DNA of 64,000 bases from an uncultured Chloroflexota bacterium. GTDB lineage: Bacteria; Chloroflexota; UBA6077; CF-72. The notes under the pieces are model-generated. The model did not search any database and was not told the DNA's origin. It was given only the letters and a program-made list of their open reading frames with translations. Shown in pieces: positions 25,393-33,651 of the stretch (position 1 is its first letter; each line of letters starts with the position of its first letter). Location of the stretch: positions 66,421 through 130,420 of the forward strand of contig CAYSYM010000003.1 of assembly GCA_964435115.1 (NCBI GenBank), in the 5' to 3' direction. A program made the translations under genes and the position numbers.

Positions 25393-26141
25393 GCGCCGCC
25401 ATGCCCCGGGCTGCCATTCGCGACCACCCCTCGCTGCGGGAGGTGGTCTACCGGCAGATCAAGGAGGCGATCTTCAGCGGGCGCCTCGAGCCGGGCAGGC
25501 GGATCGTGGAGCAGAACCTCTCGGACGAGCTCGGCGTGAGCCGCAGCCCGGTGCGCGAGGCGCTGCGCCGCCTGGAGCGGGAAGGGCTGGTGGAAGCCTC
25601 GCCGAGGCGGGGTGTCTCGGTGGCCGCCCCGACCGTGCGCGAAGTCATGCACGTCTACACCATTCGTGAGGTGCTCGAGGGCCTCGCCGCCCGCCTGGCG
25701 GCGTGCAACGTTGACGACGACGCCGTGGCCGCGATGGCGCGCATCCTCGTGCGCATGGAGGACGCCGTCCGGCGCGGCGACATCAAGGCCGCGTCGCGCG
25801 CCGACACCCAGTTCCACGCCCGGCTGCTCGACGCCACCGACAACGAGCGGCTGGTCGACCTCACCTCGCAGCTCGCCGACCTGGTACGGCGGGTCCGCGC
25901 GGCCGTGCTGGCCGAACCCGGCCGTGCGGAAGCGGTCGTGGGCGAGCACCGCGCCATCCTCGAGGCGCTGGCGGCGCGCGACCCGGAGTCCGCCGAGCGC
26001 CACATGCGGGCCCACGTGCGGCGGGCCCGCGATCACATGCTACGAATCCTGACGCGGGACGCCGAGTCGGGAGTGAGACCCAGGGAGGGTGCCGGCGGGC
26101 GCGCCCCGGTGATCCGCCGGAGCCGCCTGGAGGCCTCGTGA
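25389..26141 (+). CDS. GntR-family transcriptional regulator (FadR/FCD subfamily)
   Basis: N-terminal winged HTH (RIVEQNLSDELGVSRSPVREALRRLEREGLV) and a C-terminal FCD domain; 4-bp overlap with the upstream dehydrogenase. Confidence 0.8.
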   Translation: MSAAMPRAAIRDHPSLREVVYRQIKEAIFSGRLEPGRRIVEQNLSDELGVSRSPVREALRRLEREGLVEASPRRGVSVAAPTVREVMHVYTIREVLEGLAARLAACNVDDDAVAAMARILVRMEDAVRRGDIKAASRADTQFHARLLDATDNERLVDLTSQLADLVRRVRAAVLAEPGRAEAVVGEHRAILEALAARDPESAERHMRAHVRRARDHMLRILTRDAESGVRPREGAGGRAPVIRRSRLEAS

Positions 26142-26187
26142 GCGAGTAGCCACCCGAGATGGGGGAGTACAGCAGGGAGGGCAACAG

Positions 26188-27294
26188 ATGACACGCGTCC
26201 AGACCGGGTGCCGCGTCGCCGCGCTTCTCGTGATTGCGCTCGTCGTGGGAGTCGGCTGCACCACCGCGCCGCCAGCGGCTCAGCCAGCCGGGGCCAAGCC
26301 TGAACCGGCCGCGCCGCAGGTCGCACCGGCGACGGCGCCCTTGAGCGCCACCATGGCAGTCGGCAACAACCTCAACCACGTGCCGGCGTTCGTCGGGGTG
26401 GAGAAGGGGATCTTCCTCAAGAACGGGCTCGACCTCAAGCTGAAGGTGCTGAACACCGGCGTCGAGATGAACAAGGCGATGCAGGCCGGCGAGGCGGCGT
26501 TCGCCGGCGCATCGGTCACCAACACCCCGCTCGCCCGCGAGGAGGGCATCCCTCAGGTGGCCGTCGTCGGCTACATGAACGACGCCACCACGGCCCGCGG
26601 CGATAGTCCGCTGGCGGTGGTGGCGCGCAAGGAGGCCGGGATCGGCGAGGGCAAGATCGAAGCGCTGGCCGGCAAGAAGGTCGGCCTCGCCGTGGGCGGC
26701 ACCGGTGACGAGTACCTGCGCCTCCTCTTGAAGACGCGCGGCGTGCCGGATAGCGCGGTCACCTTCATCAACGTCGCGCCCGGCAACCAGCTCTCGGCGA
26801 TCCAGAACGGCAGCGTCGACGTCATCTCCACCTGGGAGCCCTACGGCACCCAGATCCTCGAGAAGCTCTCGGGCTCGGTCCTCGTGATCCGCGGCGGAGG
26901 CTACCTCGGCTACGTCATCATGGCCTCCAGCACCGAGGAGATCATTAAGAACCAGCCCGAGCTGGTGAAACGGTTCGTGGCGGGGGTGGCCGAGGCCACC
27001 CAGTACGCGCGCCAGAACCCGGACGAGGCGGCCGAGATCTCGACCCGCTGGATCCCCGGCCTCGACGTGGAGGTGGCCAAGAAGGCGATTCGGTTCATGC
27101 CGTTCGATGCCCGCATCAGCAAGTACTCGATCCAGGCGTTCGAGGACTCCGTCAAGGTCCTGCTGGACCAGAAGAAGCTCAAGCAGTCGGTCTCAGTCGC
27201 AGACGCTATCAACACGACCTTCATCGAGCAGGTGATGCGCGAGCGCCCGGAGCTCTTCAGCGACCTCAAGCCGATCCCCTCAGCGCGACTGTAG
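26188..27294 (+). CDS. NMT1/THI5-like ABC substrate-binding lipoprotein (NitT/TauT family)
   Basis: 368 aa with a lipobox (VGVGC) and the SsuA/ThiY-like fold. Its last 16 nt lie inside inverted-repeat copy 1. Confidence 0.75.
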   Translation: MTRVQTGCRVAALLVIALVVGVGCTTAPPAAQPAGAKPEPAAPQVAPATAPLSATMAVGNNLNHVPAFVGVEKGIFLKNGLDLKLKVLNTGVEMNKAMQAGEAAFAGASVTNTPLAREEGIPQVAVVGYMNDATTARGDSPLAVVARKEAGIGEGKIEALAGKKVGLAVGGTGDEYLRLLLKTRGVPDSAVTFINVAPGNQLSAIQNGSVDVISTWEPYGTQILEKLSGSVLVIRGGGYLGYVIMASSTEEIIKNQPELVKRFVAGVAEATQYARQNPDEAAEISTRWIPGLDVEVAKKAIRFMPFDARISKYSIQAFEDSVKVLLDQKKLKQSVSVADAINTTFIEQVMRERPELFSDLKPIPSARL

Positions 27295-27506
27295 CCGTTC
27301 AGGCGGCGTAGCAGCGGGTGGTGGTGAGGCGGTCCACGCGGGGCCGGGGGAGGTGTCCCCGCTCGCCCTCGGGAGCGGACGTGCCGGGAACCTCGTGCGC
27401 CCCCAGCTCGCGGCGGACCAGCGCCAGCGCATCGACGCGGGTCGGGTGGGCCTTGCGCTCCCGGGCGGCCTGCCGAAGGGCGGGGCGCGGCGTGGGCAGC
27501 CGCCGG
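27279..27506. repeat. Inverted repeat copy 1 (228 bp), identical to the reverse complement of 32405..32633
   Basis: I compared both copies directly. ctcagcgcgactgtagccgttcaggcggcgtagcagcgggtggtgg...ggcgtgggcagccgccgg matches the reverse complement of the second copy with no mismatch that I could find. Confidence 0.85.
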
Positions 27507-27587
27507 TGGGAGGGTACGCGGCGGCCTCGTCCCTCCTGGACAGAGCGGGGATGCCGCCTACCCTACCGTGCTTCCCGGCTCAAAGGG

Positions 27588-28046
27588 CTAAAGTCGAGAG
27601 AAGACGAGATTGACTAGGAAGAGGAAGGCCAGCGGGAGGGTGTCCACGATGCCGAACAGCGCGTACGCGAACGCCACACCACCGTGCAGGAGATTGGTCG
27701 CCACGAGCGTGGTCCGCCTGTCCCAGCGGTCCACGTAGACGCCCGCCGGAGCGCCGATGAGCACGCTGGGGAGAATGAGCGTGAGCACTGCGAGGCTCAA
27801 CTGCGTGCTGGAGCTGCTCTTCTGGTGGACGAGAATGACGATCCCATACCAGATGGCGTTCTGTGCCGTCTGACTGATCGCTTGAGCTAGCCACAGCGAT
27901 TCGAAGGCACGGTTTCGCCACGGTACGGCATCGGCCGCGGTGGTCGTCGGCCCCCAGGGCGCTGCCACCGCCGCGTGGGACTGAGGCGTAACGTGGCGCC
28001 TGACGCCCTGCCCACTTCGGCTGTGAGACACGAGGTGATGCGCCAA
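27588..28046 (-). pseudogene. MFS transporter N-terminal fragment (about 135 aa; C-terminal two-thirds missing)
   Basis: RNRAFESLWLAQAISQTAQNAIWYGIVILV...YVDRWDRRTTLVATNLL is a typical MFS TM1–TM3 region (RNRNFRLLWAGQ...DRWDRRR). A stop follows after about 135 aa, 80 bp from repeat copy 1. Confidence 0.55.
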
Positions 28047-28608
28047 CGGGACAGACCCCTACGCACGAGGCGAAGGCGCGAACACGCAGCGTGAAGGACA
28101 GCCGTCCCACCCGTGGCCCGTCGTTCCGCCTTCGAAACTCCTGGACGCGTCAGCGAACGAAGCTCCGCGGCCCACTCGAGACCAGAGCCGTCTCAGCAGC
28201 CTGTGCGACGCCGACACGTTCCGATGGCGGCGGCAATCAGCCGCCTGGTTCACTCCGGCGTTGCCCTACCTCGCCTGTGCCTCCCCAGGCGCCCCACCAT
28301 CCGTGGGGCTCCCGCAAGTCACATGTCAGGGGGGCAGTGAGAAGCTGGGAGCCAGGCGCAGTGGGGTGCAACCCGACGACACCACGATTGGGGCACTCAG
28401 GCGCGCCGCCGCACGAAGGAGCGAGACGGAGGCAAGGGAGTGGCCTGGCTGCTCGCCGAGGCAGCGCGGAGCGGTGGCTCGGACTTCTTGAGGGTGGCCG
28501 GATGCGTGCGATGCATGGGAGTGGGGAATGGGACGGTCTGTCGTCCCGTCGAGGGGCGCATCCACGGCAGCCCAGTGGACATGACCGTGGCACGCGGGCC
28601 GAAGCGAC

Positions 28609-29010
28609 TCATGGTGCGTGCCGTCGGATGAGCTCAAGCAGGGCGTCCAGATCAAACGGCTTCTCGCCGAAGCCCGCCGCGCCGAGCTCGGCCATCCGCC
28701 ATCGCGCGGCACGGTCGGTGGTGAACGCGATGATCGGGGCGTGCGGCCCGGGTAGGCGCTCGTACAGTGCAGCGAAGCCACAGCCATCGAGGATGGGCAT
28801 GTGCACGTCCAGCAAGATGCCGTCAGGACCGTGCGCCCGGACGCGCTCGAGTCCGGTCCGGCCATCTTGCGCGGTGGCCACCTCGTACCCCTCGTCGCGT
28901 AGCGCGGGCGCGACCACCTCGCAAATCTGGGTGTCGTCGTCCACGACGAGGACGCGCCGTGGCGGTTCGCAGGCAGGTCCCGCTGCCGCTGGGCTGACCT
29001 GGGCCTGCAG
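28609..29010 (-). CDS. Response regulator receiver domain protein (standalone, CheY-like)
   Basis: RVLVVDDDTQICEVV...GILLDVHMPILDG...PIIAFT. The N-terminal boundary is uncertain; the ORF extends to 29283. Confidence 0.65.
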   Translation of the reverse strand: MQAQVSPAAAGPACEPPRRVLVVDDDTQICEVVAPALRDEGYEVATAQDGRTGLERVRAHGPDGILLDVHMPILDGCGFAALYERLPGPHAPIIAFTTDRAARWRMAELGAAGFGEKPFDLDALLELIRRHAP

Positions 29011-29768
29011 CGTGTGCCCTCGACCGTCCCGCCTGTTTCGCCCCTGAGGCTTCTCCAGAGGCTCTACCGGTCGCACGGAAATCGTGTGGTCTCGGGTGCG
29101 CACCTCCAACGCCACCATGGGGAGCGTGAGCGGCAACCGGCGTGCCACACGCCTGGAAATCGCGGACGCATAGCAGAGCATCGGCGGGCACGGCCGAGGG
29201 TGGCGGCCCGGCCGCCGCCGACCAAGCAGCTGCCTCGACGGCCGAGGCGGGAGGTCTTCAGATCCCTTGGCCAGGCGGTCCAATCACGCGGGTGGTCTGC
29301 ACCGTCGCGCCCATCCGTCTCGTCCCGGATGACACGCTTCTCCGCCGCCGTCTGCTCGACGAAGGGCCTGGCGCCCGGGATCGCAAGCGTCCTCGCGGTC
29401 CGCCCGCGGACGTTCGCGTACGGTACGGATGTCATCAACCGGATTACCACACGCCGGCGACCGGGAAGCCGTGTTTGCTCGCGATGCTTGCCCCTCGGCT
29501 CGCGCGCCATCACGGGAGTTCGCGCGCGCCATCGCGGGAGACAGCGGAGCCCGCGGCGCCGATCGGGCGTGGCGCTTCCGAAGCGGAGCGATCCAGCCCT
29601 GCTGTGCCGCCTGACACCGAAGCGCGCGCACGACCTGCCGGACCCGGCACTCCGCGAGACGAACCATCGCGGGACGTTGCCCGTGGCCGCACCAATACTT
29701 GGGCCACGCACGGCTAGCCTCTAGAATCGGGTGCGGACCCGCCCACGCGCCAGTCTGGCCCGACGGAG

Positions 29769-31037
29769 ATGCTGATGACGCCGCCGAACGCCGATGCCGA
29801 CGCCGATGCGAACGCACGCATCGCGCCGCTGACGCAGCACGCTGAGCTGGGTGAGGTCGCCGCGGCGCTCACCCGCGAGCGCGATGCCATCCTACACGCG
29901 TGGCTCGAGGCCGCGCGCCTTCAGGCGTTCCACGTCGGCCGGCGCGAACGTGCGGTGGCGGACAACATCCCGATGCTGTTCGATGCGCTCGTGGCGCTCC
30001 TGCAGCGCAGCGCCCCGCGCTGGGTCGAGCCGGGGCCGCCCCTCGAGGACCCCGCGATCTTGCGCGCGGCCCAAGAGCACGCGCGGGTCCGCTTCGAGCA
30101 GGGCCTGCAGCCGGCCGACGTGGTCACGGAGTTTCGCTTGCTGCGCCAGGAGATTGGGCGAGCCCTCCGGTTCCACCTGGCCGATCGTGCCCCGTTGAGC
30201 GACGTCCTGGCGGCCGAGCTGCTCGTCCACGACGCGCTGGACGGCGCCATCTCGGTGGCGCTCGACGCCATCACGACGCACATCGAGGAGGTCCGCGAGG
30301 ACTTCCTCGCCACGACGCTGCACGACGTGGGCCAGCCCTTGACGGCCGTCAAGGGCAGCATTGGCCTCGCCCTGCGTGAGCTCCAACACCCCCCGCTTGA
30401 CCGCGAGCAGCTCGCACGCACGTTGGGTCGGGCGGCGGCCGAGACGGAGCGTCTGTGGGCGCTGTTGGCCGACCTCGCGGACCGGTCGCGCCTGGCGCTC
30501 GGACGCCACGACGTGCACCTCGACGCTCTGGACCTGAGCGCGCTGGTGCGCGCGGTGGTCGAACGGGTCGACCCGGAGGAGGCCCGACGCGTCGTCATCG
30601 TCGACGCGGTGCACCCCATGACGGTGCGGGGCGATGCCCGTCTCCTCGCGCGCGTGCTGGACAATCTCCTCTCCAATGCGCTCAAGTACTCCGCGCCGCT
30701 GGGGCGGGTGACGGTCGCGCTCGCGCGCGAGGCCGACCGCGCGCAGGTGGCGGTCCAGGATACGGGCATCGGCCTGACGGCCGACGAGCTGGAGGGCTTG
30801 TTCCGGCGCTACGCGCGTGCGGGCTCCGCCGTCGCGCGCGGGGTCCCCGGAGATGGGCTGGGCCTGTATCTGTCGCGCGGCATCGTGGAGGCACATGGCG
30901 GACGGCTCTGGCTCGAGTCGCCCGGACGCGACCAGGGAACGACAGCCCACCTCGTCCTCCCCACCGCGCCCATCGATGCGAGCGACGTCCCGCTTTCCCT
31001 GACGGCGCAGCCTGGAGCACGCGGCCCCAGCAACTAA
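29769..31037 (+). CDS. Sensor histidine kinase (cytoplasmic; RsbR-N/globin-like N-terminal domain plus HisKA plus HATPase_c)
   Basis: H-box ATTLHDVGQPLTAV, N-box LLSNALKYS, and G-boxes DTGIGL and GDGLGL. No transmembrane segments are evident. Confidence 0.8.
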   Translation: MLMTPPNADADADANARIAPLTQHAELGEVAAALTRERDAILHAWLEAARLQAFHVGRRERAVADNIPMLFDALVALLQRSAPRWVEPGPPLEDPAILRAAQEHARVRFEQGLQPADVVTEFRLLRQEIGRALRFHLADRAPLSDVLAAELLVHDALDGAISVALDAITTHIEEVREDFLATTLHDVGQPLTAVKGSIGLALRELQHPPLDREQLARTLGRAAAETERLWALLADLADRSRLALGRHDVHLDALDLSALVRAVVERVDPEEARRVVIVDAVHPMTVRGDARLLARVLDNLLSNALKYSAPLGRVTVALAREADRAQVAVQDTGIGLTADELEGLFRRYARAGSAVARGVPGDGLGLYLSRGIVEAHGGRLWLESPGRDQGTTAHLVLPTAPIDASDVPLSLTAQPGARGPSN

Positions 31038-31125
31038 CGGACCTTCTGGAGCGGGGTCCCCTGGCCGCAGGTCCGTATCATGATCAGGCGGCGACGGCGT
31101 CCACGGTGCCCGGGAGGGAGGCCGC

Positions 31126-31563
31126 GTGTCCGAGCGCTTGACGGTTGACCACAGCCTGGTCACGGAGCTCGTCCTGCTGCGTGCCCGCCTGGAGCTTGCG
31201 GGCGCGCGCCTGGAACTGGAGCGTGACCAAGCGCAGGAGCGCGCCGACAAGGACGCGATCGGCGCGCTCACCCAGGGACTGGTGATCCTGACGCGCGTGC
31301 GGAACGACGTGCAGGCGGCGCTGAAGGACGCAGCGGGCGACGAAGCCTCCCTGGACCTGCGATTGGAGGGCCCGGCGGTCGTGAAGGCGCTGCGTGGGAT
31401 GCGCGAGACGGTCCAGCAGCGGGTCGGGAGCCCGGCGGGCGGGGCCTCCGTGCGAGCGGAGCTCGAGGTGGTCTGGGCCGAGCTCGAAGCGTTGCGGCAG
31501 TCGGAGCAGGGCGCGCTGAAGCGCCTGGCCGAGCTCCAGCGCCGGATCGCGGACGCCGACTGA
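31126..31563 (+). CDS. Hypothetical coiled-coil protein
   Basis: 145-aa ORF with heptad-like Leu/Glu/Arg-rich sequence; only weak coding evidence. Confidence 0.35.
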   Translation: MSERLTVDHSLVTELVLLRARLELAGARLELERDQAQERADKDAIGALTQGLVILTRVRNDVQAALKDAAGDEASLDLRLEGPAVVKALRGMRETVQQRVGSPAGGASVRAELEVVWAELEALRQSEQGALKRLAELQRRIADAD

Positions 31564-32049
31564 TCAATGCGCTGAGCGTCGGTGACCCGGCCTTGCCGGT
31601 CGGGGGGCAGGCGCGGGCCGGCGCCGCCGCTTGAGCGTGCCTCGGCTGGTGCGACCGTCCTACCACCACCCACCTATGCATGCGCATTCTGTGTCCGTGG
31701 GCCAAGAGGCCGAGCTGTTGGGACCGTCTCGCGCCAGGCGGGACGGGTGGGAGATCAGGCTCCTGTCGGTCCGGAGCGCGGCAGCGACCGCAATGCACAG
31801 CGACGGTGATGAGCAGGCGTGGCAAGGCGGGCCGACGGAGGGACGCCTCGTCAACGGCCACCGTGGTGCCGCTTGGTGCGCGGCGCCTGTGGCGGGAGAA
31901 GCGCCGGCAGCCAGGGCGCTGCGCATGATTGTGCGTTGCCACAACCGTCCCCTTGCTTCACCGCGCCTGGACGCTGTCTTCTCTTGGATCACCCTCGTTC
32001 CCGGTGAGGCCCCCTTGCCCGAGTGTACCGACTCCCTCCCGCGCGCCTC

Positions 32050-32393
32050 CCGCCGCGTGCGCGCCGCCTCCGCCGCGCTACTCGACGCCGACTCTGCCAC
32101 ACTGCTGGCTCGCGTGCAGGACATGCTCTGCGAGACCACCCGTGCGCAAATCGTTCGTGCCCTCTCGGCGACGCCGCTGAGCGTCTCGGAGTTGGCGCAC
32201 GTGATCGGCCGCGGCAAGTAGTCCACGAGCCGCCACCTGCGCGTGCTGTGGGAGGCCGGGCTCATCGTCGCGAGGCGGCGCGGGCGCTTCATCTTCTACA
32301 GCCCGTTGGACGACCCCGCCGTGGCGTCCGCGCTCGTGTCCCTCGACGCGGTCGCCGCTCAGAAGGGCGGGGATGGCGCCTGAGCGCGCCGCG
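32050..32393 (+). pseudogene. ArsR/SmtB-family regulator with an in-frame TAG inside the recognition helix
   Basis: TTRAQIVRALSATPLSVSELAHVIGRGK*STSRHLRVLWEAGLIVARRRGRFIFYSPLD aligns to the ArsR HTH ...LGLSQSAVSHHLRVLREAGLV.RREGRWVYYRL. The amber codon at 32219-32221 sits where Gln/Ser is expected (CAG to TAG). Confidence 0.55.
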
Positions 32394-32404
32394 CTGCGCG
32401 CTCG

Positions 32405-32633
32405 CCGGCGGCTGCCCACGCCGCGCCCCGCCCTTCGGCAGGCCGCCCGGGAGCGCAAGGCCCACCCGACCCGCGTCGATGCGCTGGCGCTGGTCCGCCG
32501 CGAGCTGGGGGCGCACGAGGTTCCCGGCACGTCCGCTCCCGAGGGCGAGCGGGGACACCTCCCCCGGCCCCGCGTGGACCGCCTCACCACCACCCGCTGC
32601 TACGCCGCCTGAACGGCTACAGTCGCGCTGAGA
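32405..32633. repeat. Inverted repeat copy 2 (reverse complement of 27279..27506)
   Basis: Direct comparison, as for copy 1. Confidence 0.85.
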
Positions 32634-32835
32634 TGGCGGCCAGGATCGAGATCCAGCCGCTGCGGCACGACTACGTCGACCCGTACTCGGGTGACGTAAC
32701 TACTCAGACTCGTGTCACCGGACGTGGTCCGTGACCACGGGGTGTGGTGGGTCCCCGGGGCTATCTACCACCGGTTGACGCGCGATGCCTCACAGGGCCA
32801 GTTCTGCGCATGAGTGTGAGTAGTTACCGGGTGAC

Positions 32836-33651
32836 GTGGTGCTGACACTGGGCGGCGTGGACCTGGAGATCCAGCCCGGCGAGCTGCTGGCCCTGGTGGG
32901 CCCCTCAGGCTGCGGCAAGTCCACGCTGCTGGCCATCGTCGCCGGGCTGCTCCGGCCAACCCAGGGTGAGGTCCGCATCGACGGCCGGCCGGTCAGCGGC
33001 CCGGGCCGCGACCGCGGTGTCGTCTTCCAGGAGCTGGCCATCCTCCCCTGGCGCACCGTCGCCGGGAACGTCGGCCACGGGCTCGAGATCCAGAAGGTCC
33101 CGCGCCCGCAGCGCGAAGCCACCGTACGGCGGTTCGTCGAGCTCGTCGGCCTGGACGGCTTCGAGCACAAGTACCCCCACGAATTGTCCGGCGGCATGAA
33201 GCAGCGTGTGGCCGTGGCGCGGGCGCTGGCGGCCAACCCCGACGTGCTCCTGATGGACGAGCCGCTCGCCGCCGTCGACGCGCAGATGCGCATCACCCTC
33301 CAGGAGGAGCTGCTCCAGATCGCCGCAGCGACGCGGAAGACGATCATGTTCGTGACGCACAGCGTCGACGAGGCGGTCTTCCTGGGCGACCGGGTGGCCG
33401 TCTTCAGCGCGCGGCCGGGGCGCGTAAAGGAGCTGGTCGAGGTCCGCACGGCGGTCACGCAACGCGCGCTCCAGGACGTCGTCGTCACACTCCAGTTCCC
33501 ACCCGAGCAGTTCCACATCAAGCTCTTCCAGTCGTACGGCACGGTGAGCGGCGTGCGGGGCGACGCGGTGATCATCCGGCGGGTCCCGCCGGAGGCCGTG
33601 TCGGAGATCGCCAGGCTCTACTGGGTCCGCCAGATCGAGCCACTCCGATAA
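32836..33651 (+). CDS. ABC transporter ATP-binding protein (NitT/TauT family), apparently missing its 5' end
   Basis: Walker A GPSGCGKST, signature LSGGMKQRVAVARAL, Walker B LLMDEP. Only about 12 aa precede the EIQPGE motif where about 30 are expected, and an in-frame TAG lies 4 codons upstream. Confidence 0.7.
   Translation: MVLTLGGVDLEIQPGELLALVGPSGCGKSTLLAIVAGLLRPTQGEVRIDGRPVSGPGRDRGVVFQELAILPWRTVAGNVGHGLEIQKVPRPQREATVRRFVELVGLDGFEHKYPHELSGGMKQRVAVARALAANPDVLLMDEPLAAVDAQMRITLQEELLQIAAATRKTIMFVTHSVDEAVFLGDRVAVFSARPGRVKELVEVRTAVTQRALQDVVVTLQFPPEQFHIKLFQSYGTVSGVRGDAVIIRRVPPEAVSEIARLYWVRQIEPLR

Follow-up and report, generated by a model that had tools for sequence, protein, structure and literature searches.

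Several described systems place inverted repeats around a segment of bacterial DNA. In mobile insertion cassettes, such as MIC231 of Bacillus cereus, which is mobilised in trans by the insertion sequence (IS) IS231, inverted IS ends bound passenger genes, and the unit has no transposase gene of its own. In compound and pseudo-compound transposons (Tn10, Tn5, IS26-bounded units), the cargo lies between inverted copies of one IS, and the unit, which sits in a single target, extends from one outer IS end to the other. Inverted repeats around a DNA segment are also found in invertible switches (fim, hin, shufflons), where they are short and served by a dedicated recombinase, while tandem inversion duplications, as in Salmonella, and dup-INV-dup variants offer a possible route to identical inverted copies with a shared inner break. 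Here we describe a related structure in a stretch of 64,000 nucleotides (the window) from an uncultured Chloroflexota bacterium (assembly GCA_964435115.1, contig CAYSYM010000003.1, positions 66,421 to 130,420), in which two perfect inverted repeats, hereafter arms, enclose a set of genes within an ATP-binding cassette (ABC) transporter operon. We consider it probable that the arms are two identical truncated right ends of an IS701-family insertion sequence, bounding a block of 5,346 bp inserted at the stop codon of a binding-protein gene.

The two arms are exact reverse complements of each other (228 nt each, 100% complementary), separated by a spacer of 4,898 nt, and a perfect inverted repeat of 228 nt far exceeds what could arise by chance. 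This pair is the sole long repeat of the window, the next-longest inverted repeat being 49 nt with 76% complementarity. An earlier interpretation of the same DNA, made from the letters alone (the sequence-only reading), had recognised the exact complementarity, yet it set the end of the second copy at 32633, one base beyond its actual end at 32632. The features on which the argument depends are the following:

27279..27506, minus strand: arm 1, made of the half-site CTCA (27279-27282), the right terminus GCGCGACTGTAGCCGT (27283-27298), a stop codon (27299-27301) and transposase codons (27302-27506)
32405..32632, plus strand: arm 2, made of transposase codons (32405-32609), the stop TGA (32610-32612), the right terminus ACGGCTACAGTCGCGC (32613-32628) and the half-site TGAG (32629-32632)
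27283..32628, no strand: putative inserted block, 5,346 bp from terminus to terminus, with two outward-facing right IS ends around non-transposase cargo
32373..32612, plus strand: ORF79, an open reading frame (ORF) of 79 aa, whose codons 12-79 are a transposase C-terminal relic inside arm 2 and whose ATG overlaps the end of an ArsR-type ORF

In regard to the composition of the arms, each of them consists of 204 nt of transposase 3′ coding sequence, a stop codon, a 16-nt IS terminus and 4 further bases. In arm 1, the last 68 codons of the transposase are read on the minus strand, and the stop codon at 27299-27301 is the reverse complement of TGA. An exhaustive search of 1.84 billion representative proteins gave 26 relatives of ORF79 at E <= 1e-3, nearly all of them aligned at their own extreme C-terminus, with the longer ones extending upstream into a DDE transposase. 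One relative (P0261) scored 210 bits against the NCBIfam model NF049999 (IS701 family transposase), for which the cut-off is 170, and it also matched the Pfam families DDE_5 and DDE_Tnp_1. ORF79 itself remained below the NF049999 cut-off, so that its homology rests on direct phmmer hits and on a hidden Markov model (HMM) built in this analysis from 35 full-length transposase relatives (468 positions). When this HMM was run on the six-frame translation of the 64 kb, it matched the two arms only, at profile positions 400-468 (E 6e-14, fragment 27302-27562, minus strand) and 396-468 (E 1e-13), and no further transposase sequence was found outside them. The terminus following the stop codon in the window, TGA ACGGCTACAGTCGCGC, matches that of the relative L048, TGA ATGGCTAAAGTCGAGC, at 13 of 16 terminus positions. 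Furthermore, blastn alignments beginning at 27282/27283 show an identity of 91% across the last 33 nt and of 73% across 200 nt, and the distance between the transposase stop and the right end is 16 nt in the window and roughly 15-21 nt in the relatives. The sequence-only reading had reported neither a recombinase nor a transposase; a recombinase gene is indeed absent from the segment, whereas the arms turn out to carry the 3′ end of a transposase gene and an IS terminus.

Residues which are nearly invariant in the relatives have been replaced in the window copy (among them R for W, E for Y and G for W), and because of these losses ORF79 is a transposase relic and not a gene. It was also considered as a genuine small gene, coupled to the ArsR-type one; this was rejected, since it aligns end to end with transposase C-termini and their conserved residues are missing. 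The called protein P0241, under which an NCBI-sourced record lists ORF79, is probably a mistaken gene prediction. Looking up the exact protein of ORF79, and that of one start choice of the histidine kinase lying between the arms, gave no match. In place of a complete element of 1.4-1.55 kb with a catalytic domain and both ends, the window holds 224 nt of the right end, twice, and a search of its 64 kb for a left IS end or for additional IS ends gave nothing beyond chance. The arms are relics of an IS and not an IS. An arm was also considered as a MITE (a miniature transposable element with inverted repeats), and this was rejected because its two ends show no inverted-copy relation to each other. 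Arm 1 folded as single-stranded DNA showed no structure above shuffled controls (z = 0.6), and an Rfam scan of 26500-33500 with E up to 1 gave no match.

A genome scan with the C-terminal alignment resulted in 191 loci, 80 of which were kept (L011-L090), mostly in genomes of Chloroflexota, Thermomicrobiales and Rubrobacter. The size of the related elements, delimited by copies within one genome (L035, L036 and L037 with 99.7% identity, L048 and L052 with 97%), is ~1.45 kb, and their left and right ends agree over only about 13-16 nt. As for the flanks of the ~48 full elements, CTNA is present on the left side in 35, TNAG on the right side in 26, and both half-sites in 21. When both half-sites are present, the two sides have the same N in 12 of the 21 elements, as a duplication of 3 bp (TNA) inside a CTNAG target would give, and a differing N in the other 9. 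This IS subgroup shows a strong preference for CTNAG targets, and in its recently moved identical copies L036 and L037 the centre bases match on both sides.

The same kind of site can be recognised around the block. Two genes of the transporter operon meet it:

26188..27294, plus strand: gene for an NMT1-type (NitT/TauT) substrate-binding protein, with the native stop TGA now reading TCA and four extra codons (SARL) taken from arm 1
32633..33651, plus strand: ABC ATPase pseudogene, with an intact start (32633-32695), resuming at 32836, its C-terminus fused to the tail of a 115-aa gene

CTCA stands to the left of the arm 1 terminus and TGAG to the right of the arm 2 terminus, and by comparison with the relatives the outer 4 bases of each arm are the half-sites of a CTNAG target. 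Their complementarity follows from the target being palindromic, together with two centre bases that happen to be complementary. Removal in silico of the block and of one TNA gives ...AAG CCG ATC CCC TGA G ATG GCG GCC..., and the predicted empty-site sequence is ...GATCCCCTGAGATGGCGG... The restored binding protein ends with ...SDLKPIP*, at the position where the L004 homologue ends, and the ATPase start follows one base later. According to this reconstruction, the block sits exactly in the CTGAG that holds the binding-protein stop TGA, one base before the ATPase start codon. As the left target copy reads TCA, the stop was lost and SARL was added to the binding protein; the product now ends with ...PIP-SARL-stop, in agreement with the sequence-only reading, which had attributed the last 16 nt of this gene to arm 1. 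The same reading had described the ATPase gene as lacking its 5′ end, which proved incorrect, since an ATG is present at 32633 directly after arm 2 (MAARIEIQPLRHDYVDPYSGDV).

The surrounding genes support the same conclusion. In the nearest syntenic locus, L002, genes are arranged in the order 2-hydroxyacid dehydrogenase, GntR/FCD regulator, binding protein, ATPase, permease, permease, 115-aa gene, cupin, amidohydrolase_2 and M24 peptidase, and the window has this order on both sides of the block, apart from the block itself and a deletion of the permeases. The start of the ATPase gene in L002 overlaps the binding-protein stop. The proposal of the sequence-only reading that the segment splits an ABC transporter operon is borne out by the nearest syntenic loci, where the gene for the ATPase comes directly after that for the binding protein or overlaps with it, and the intact operon which it suggested looking for in related genomes exists in L002, with binding protein, ATPase and two permeases contiguous. 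Taken together, the flanks, the restored reading frames and the synteny lead to the conclusion that 27283-32628 is an insertion into the binding-protein stop codon. The binding protein of L002 has 69% identity to that of the window and, with the nearest genomes at only this level, we infer the empty site rather than observe it. A first genome scan with the binding protein returned no relatives. For the binding protein (69%) and the kinase (at most 61%), the closest homologues belong to uncultured Chloroflexota or Actinomycetota. In the collections searched, the lineage is without a close sequenced relative, which limits the synteny tests.

Compared with the systems described above, the C-terminal part of the transposase and the terminal repeat at the right end share homology with those of the ~1.45 kb IS701-family relatives, while the last 68 of about 468 codons are what remains in the window. 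The arrangement recalls mobile insertion cassettes, from which it differs in having arms of 224 nt that represent the same (right) end twice and carry a remnant of the transposase gene. In contrast to MIC231, the IS concerned is IS701-like and not IS231, and neither a trans-acting transposase nor a second copy was found in the searches. In compound transposons the IS copies bound the unit as well; those in the window are cut to the last 15%, at the same base, and cannot supply transposase. Unlike tandem inversion duplications, the structure has outer edges that are exact IS termini with target half-sites, and a parental palindrome would be hypothetical. Inverted IS ends are found at both outer boundaries, as in a composite unit. 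In the flanks CTCA and TGAG, the T and the A of the expected target duplication agree and the centre base differs, and the restored site fits a single CTGAG. In all, the block is a candidate mobile insertion cassette or pseudo-compound transposon.

In regard to the mechanism that led to such a structure, the two outward right ends, the family-typical flanks and the single restorable target point to outer joints made by transposase chemistry. The arms are identical, they end at the same inner base, and the relic looks old; presumably the IS was truncated first, and one arm then arose as a copy of its partner, since it is unlikely that two full IS copies decayed independently into identical arms. 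The recent duplication or homogenisation of the arms proposed by the sequence-only reading is plausible. According to the route that we prefer, a solo right end together with its neighbouring DNA would first become two-ended, for example by a fold-back inverted duplication, the centre of which would then be deleted asymmetrically. Alternatively, the arm could have been copied through a replication template switch. Subsequently, a related transposase encoded elsewhere could recognise the two right ends and insert the block as a unit in trans. For this succession of end duplication and insertion in trans we see about as many chances for as against, and the broader proposal of an arrival in one piece, the block being a composite element devoid of transposase and similar to a mobile insertion cassette or pseudo-compound transposon, stands at roughly even odds too.

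Several observations weigh against this interpretation. Neither a full-length copy of this IS, nor a second copy of the block, nor a donor site was found in the window or in the sequence collections searched, and a metagenome scan for the 22-nt IS end gave no match. A search for a near-identical full-length transposase among 5.8 billion clusters returned only ORF79 itself. Of the signs by which mobility could be recognised, namely other copies, an observed empty site and a matching transposase, none was found. At their centre base the target copies disagree (TCA at the left side, TGA at the right), a type of mismatch seen also in 9 of the 21 copies of relatives. The published description of the IS701 family gives a 4-bp target duplication (De Palmenaer et al. 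2008, PMC2266710), whereas the flanks of the subgroup with CTNAG targets suggest 3-bp TNA, and a 4-bp duplication was not found. Self-comparison of the loci of the 80 relatives revealed no long inverted copy of the right end, so that the structure has no precedent in the family. The conserved residues lost from the relic make the source IS look old, although the arms are identical. Finally, the source contig is probably from a short-read metagenome-assembled genome, and the orientation of the inner segment, strictly also its placement and the linkage of the arms, rest on the assembler.

The alternative that survives best is remodelling in situ, which we regard as possible though rather doubtful. 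In this scenario, a complete IS701-family element, or an IS-bounded one, with a normal left end would have inserted first at CTGAG, and its left part would have been replaced later, when a template switch or break repair copied the right junction (arm and TGAG) in inverted orientation onto the left side. Copying would begin in the CT/AG microhomology and switch back at the inner boundary of the arm, and the cargo would either have been present between the ends already or have been captured in the same event. Such remodelling accounts, with no extra assumptions, for the inclusion of the 4 flank bases in the repeat and for the complementary centre bases (C on the left, G on the right). It likewise accounts for the inner end base shared by both arms, and it needs no active transposase recognising two right ends; the failure to find the full-length IS among 5.8 billion protein clusters also speaks in its favour. 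On the other hand, a step that brings 4.9 kb of unrelated genes between the ends is still needed and has no explanation, and the block retains neither a left-end-like sequence nor any other transposase remnant.

A bolder version of the insertion of the block as a unit, in which it is still a mobilisable transposase-less cargo transposon, moved in trans through its two right ends and carrying a two-component system between genomes, appears unlikely. If it were true, the long identical arms would reflect a fold-back route which restores two-endedness to a solo IS end. In its present state the block is inert. An occasional flip could come about through general homologous recombination between the arms and in no other way, with no evident functional consequence.

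Errors of assembly have to be weighed as well. An assembler could have followed a wrong graph path through the repeat, so that the inner segment, or its orientation, would be foreign to the gap between the binding-protein and ATPase genes. The sequence was found in Logan contigs from runs SRR5161788 and SRR5161795, the latter a copper-mine tailings metagenome from Brazil (PMC7327174), and a repeat of 228 bp is longer than typical k-mer sizes and read lengths. The Logan contigs do not span the arms: L006 and L007 match 29461-32387 and 29590-31988 exactly, amber codon of the ArsR-type gene included, and neither reaches an arm, while L001 corresponds to 26016-27308 and ends exactly 30 nt into arm 1, a hint of the branch expected at a repeat edge in a k=31 graph. 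Still, L001 independently joins the binding-protein side to 26 nt identical to the right end, and the two ends of the relatives agree over only ~13-16 nt. Moreover, the inner segment meets the same inner arm edge on either side and, with two copies only, a single linear solution exists up to orientation. Both outer flanks rebuild one clean target site and, consequently, this site must be occupied by an element having right-type ends on both sides, irrespective of its inner content. Support for both outer joints is good, and we hold an artefact of this kind to be improbable.

A programmed invertible switch, with the arms as recombination sites and flipping that alters gene expression, is hardly credible: perfect inverted repeats do bracket regulatory genes (receiver, kinase and ArsR-type), yet no site-specific recombinase came up when the ORFs of the segment and those next to it were scanned against Pfam, in the six-frame translation of the 64 kb the IS-family transposase HMM matched nothing but the two arms, these arms are IS relics, the genes next to them are a stub, a pseudogene and a dead ATPase, and a promoter scan of 27000-33000 found no promoter-like site. 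The arms are ten times longer than the repeats of known switches and derive from an IS, and the window also lacks the gene-fusion logic of such systems. A terminator scan gave one terminator-like site, below the shuffle mean. Having considered an invertible switch and a composite-transposon-like structure, the sequence-only reading came close to the truth with the latter, while the former is left with neither a recombinase nor a promoter-like site.

Insertion of the block is not the only damage to the operon. A further insertion lies within the ATPase gene:

32696-32827, no strand: MITE-like insertion of 132 bp, 61% GC, with an 8-bp target duplication CGGGTGAC at 32688-32695 and 32828-32835

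This element interrupts the ATPase after codon 21 (codon 21/22). Its terminal inverted repeats begin with GTAACTACTCA... and agree at 11 of 11 bases and then at 17 of 24. Removing 140 nt (the element and one copy of the duplication) yields an ATPase frame which aligns with the ATPases of L002 and L004. The element occurs once in the window, and none of the 90 fetched loci contains it; its GTAA ends and 8-bp duplication presumably recall IS66-type elements. Towards the other end of the gene, ATPase homology ends near ...RPGRVKELVEVRTA (...VEVRTA), and an in-frame fusion follows from ~33470, within about 33440-33520; the last 50-odd residues of the fused ORF match the C-terminus of the 115-aa gene, which stands after the permeases in L002. 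No permease homologue was found in the whole 64 kb. To judge from this junction, both permeases were lost by a separate deletion that joined the ATPase to the downstream 115-aa gene. The motif 'EVR' occurs at the breakpoint in both fusion parents in L002, and the sequence suggests a deletion between short direct repeats. While the sequence-only reading was right that permeases are absent, it had linked their absence to the block, and the order in relatives (binding protein, ATPase, permease, permease) implies that they were not displaced by it. Block insertion, MITE-like element and permease deletion thus amount to three independent lesions of the operon. The binding-protein gene itself is intact (GC content at third codon positions 0.90, full-length NMT1 match) and an orphan, with its ATPase broken and its permeases gone.

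The cargo between the arms comprises the following:

27588..28046, minus strand: 5′ stub of a major facilitator superfamily (MFS) transporter gene (MFS_3/MFS_1), matching the MFS_3 profile at 5-106 of 524 (E 8e-7), ~20% of the full gene
about 27900-28600, no strand: stretch with no clear coding signal (GC signal by codon position weak or absent, without matches to families, repeats or IS)
28609..29283, minus strand: receiver-domain ORF, Response_reg in the C-terminal 110 residues (~28627-28953, E 1e-20), with a codon-position GC pattern
29284-29770, no strand: second stretch with no clear coding signal (GC signal by codon position likewise weak or absent, and again without matches to families, repeats or IS)
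29769..31037, plus strand: histidine kinase with RsbRD_N, HisKA and HATPase_c domains, identical in sequence in two Logan contigs
31126..31563, plus strand: ORF of 145 aa without a family match, its GC pattern being of the coding type; gene calling on Logan contigs predicted it too
32057..32383, plus strand: pseudogene of an ArsR-type helix-turn-helix protein (HTH_5 and HTH_20, E 9e-9), with an in-frame TAG at 32219-32221 and the stop at 32381-32383

As the sequence-only reading had it, the MFS gene is broken near arm 1, the stub ending at 27588, 81 nt away, and domain matches confirm the pair of receiver and histidine kinase within the segment. Its account of the ArsR-like gene was accurate for the in-frame amber codon and not for the distance to arm 2, which is 21 nt instead of 12. 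This amber falls in the region of the recognition helix. It is present in identical form in the independent Logan contig L006 (2759-2761) from a second sequencing run, so it cannot be a sequencing error of one assembly. The two stretches at 27900-28600 and 29284-29770 may be decayed genes; when those parts of the block that look non-coding were compared with the window by blastn, nothing significant emerged. Likewise, blastn and tblastx of 27200-32700 against the IS loci revealed nothing significant beyond the kinase and the arms. Homologues of the kinase are at most 61% identical and lie in unrelated neighbourhoods, and no conserved synteny that could indicate a native context of the cargo was found among these neighbourhoods.

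What appeared to be a puzzling perfect inverted repeat becomes a recognisable scar of a mobile element, an outcome that would not surprise a specialist. For annotation, it is useful that a 79-aa ORF held in public collections can be re-read as a transposase relic. In the scanning of genomes, long perfect inverted repeats in metagenome-assembled genomes should be tested for IS ends before a switch is called. For research on insertion sequences, the locus offers a rarely seen arrangement, in which cargo is enclosed by the right end of an IS701-like element present in two identical copies, along with a dataset of ~48 relatives with a preference for CTNAG targets. As for the organism itself, its transporter operon has been inactivated three times and should not be counted as functional.

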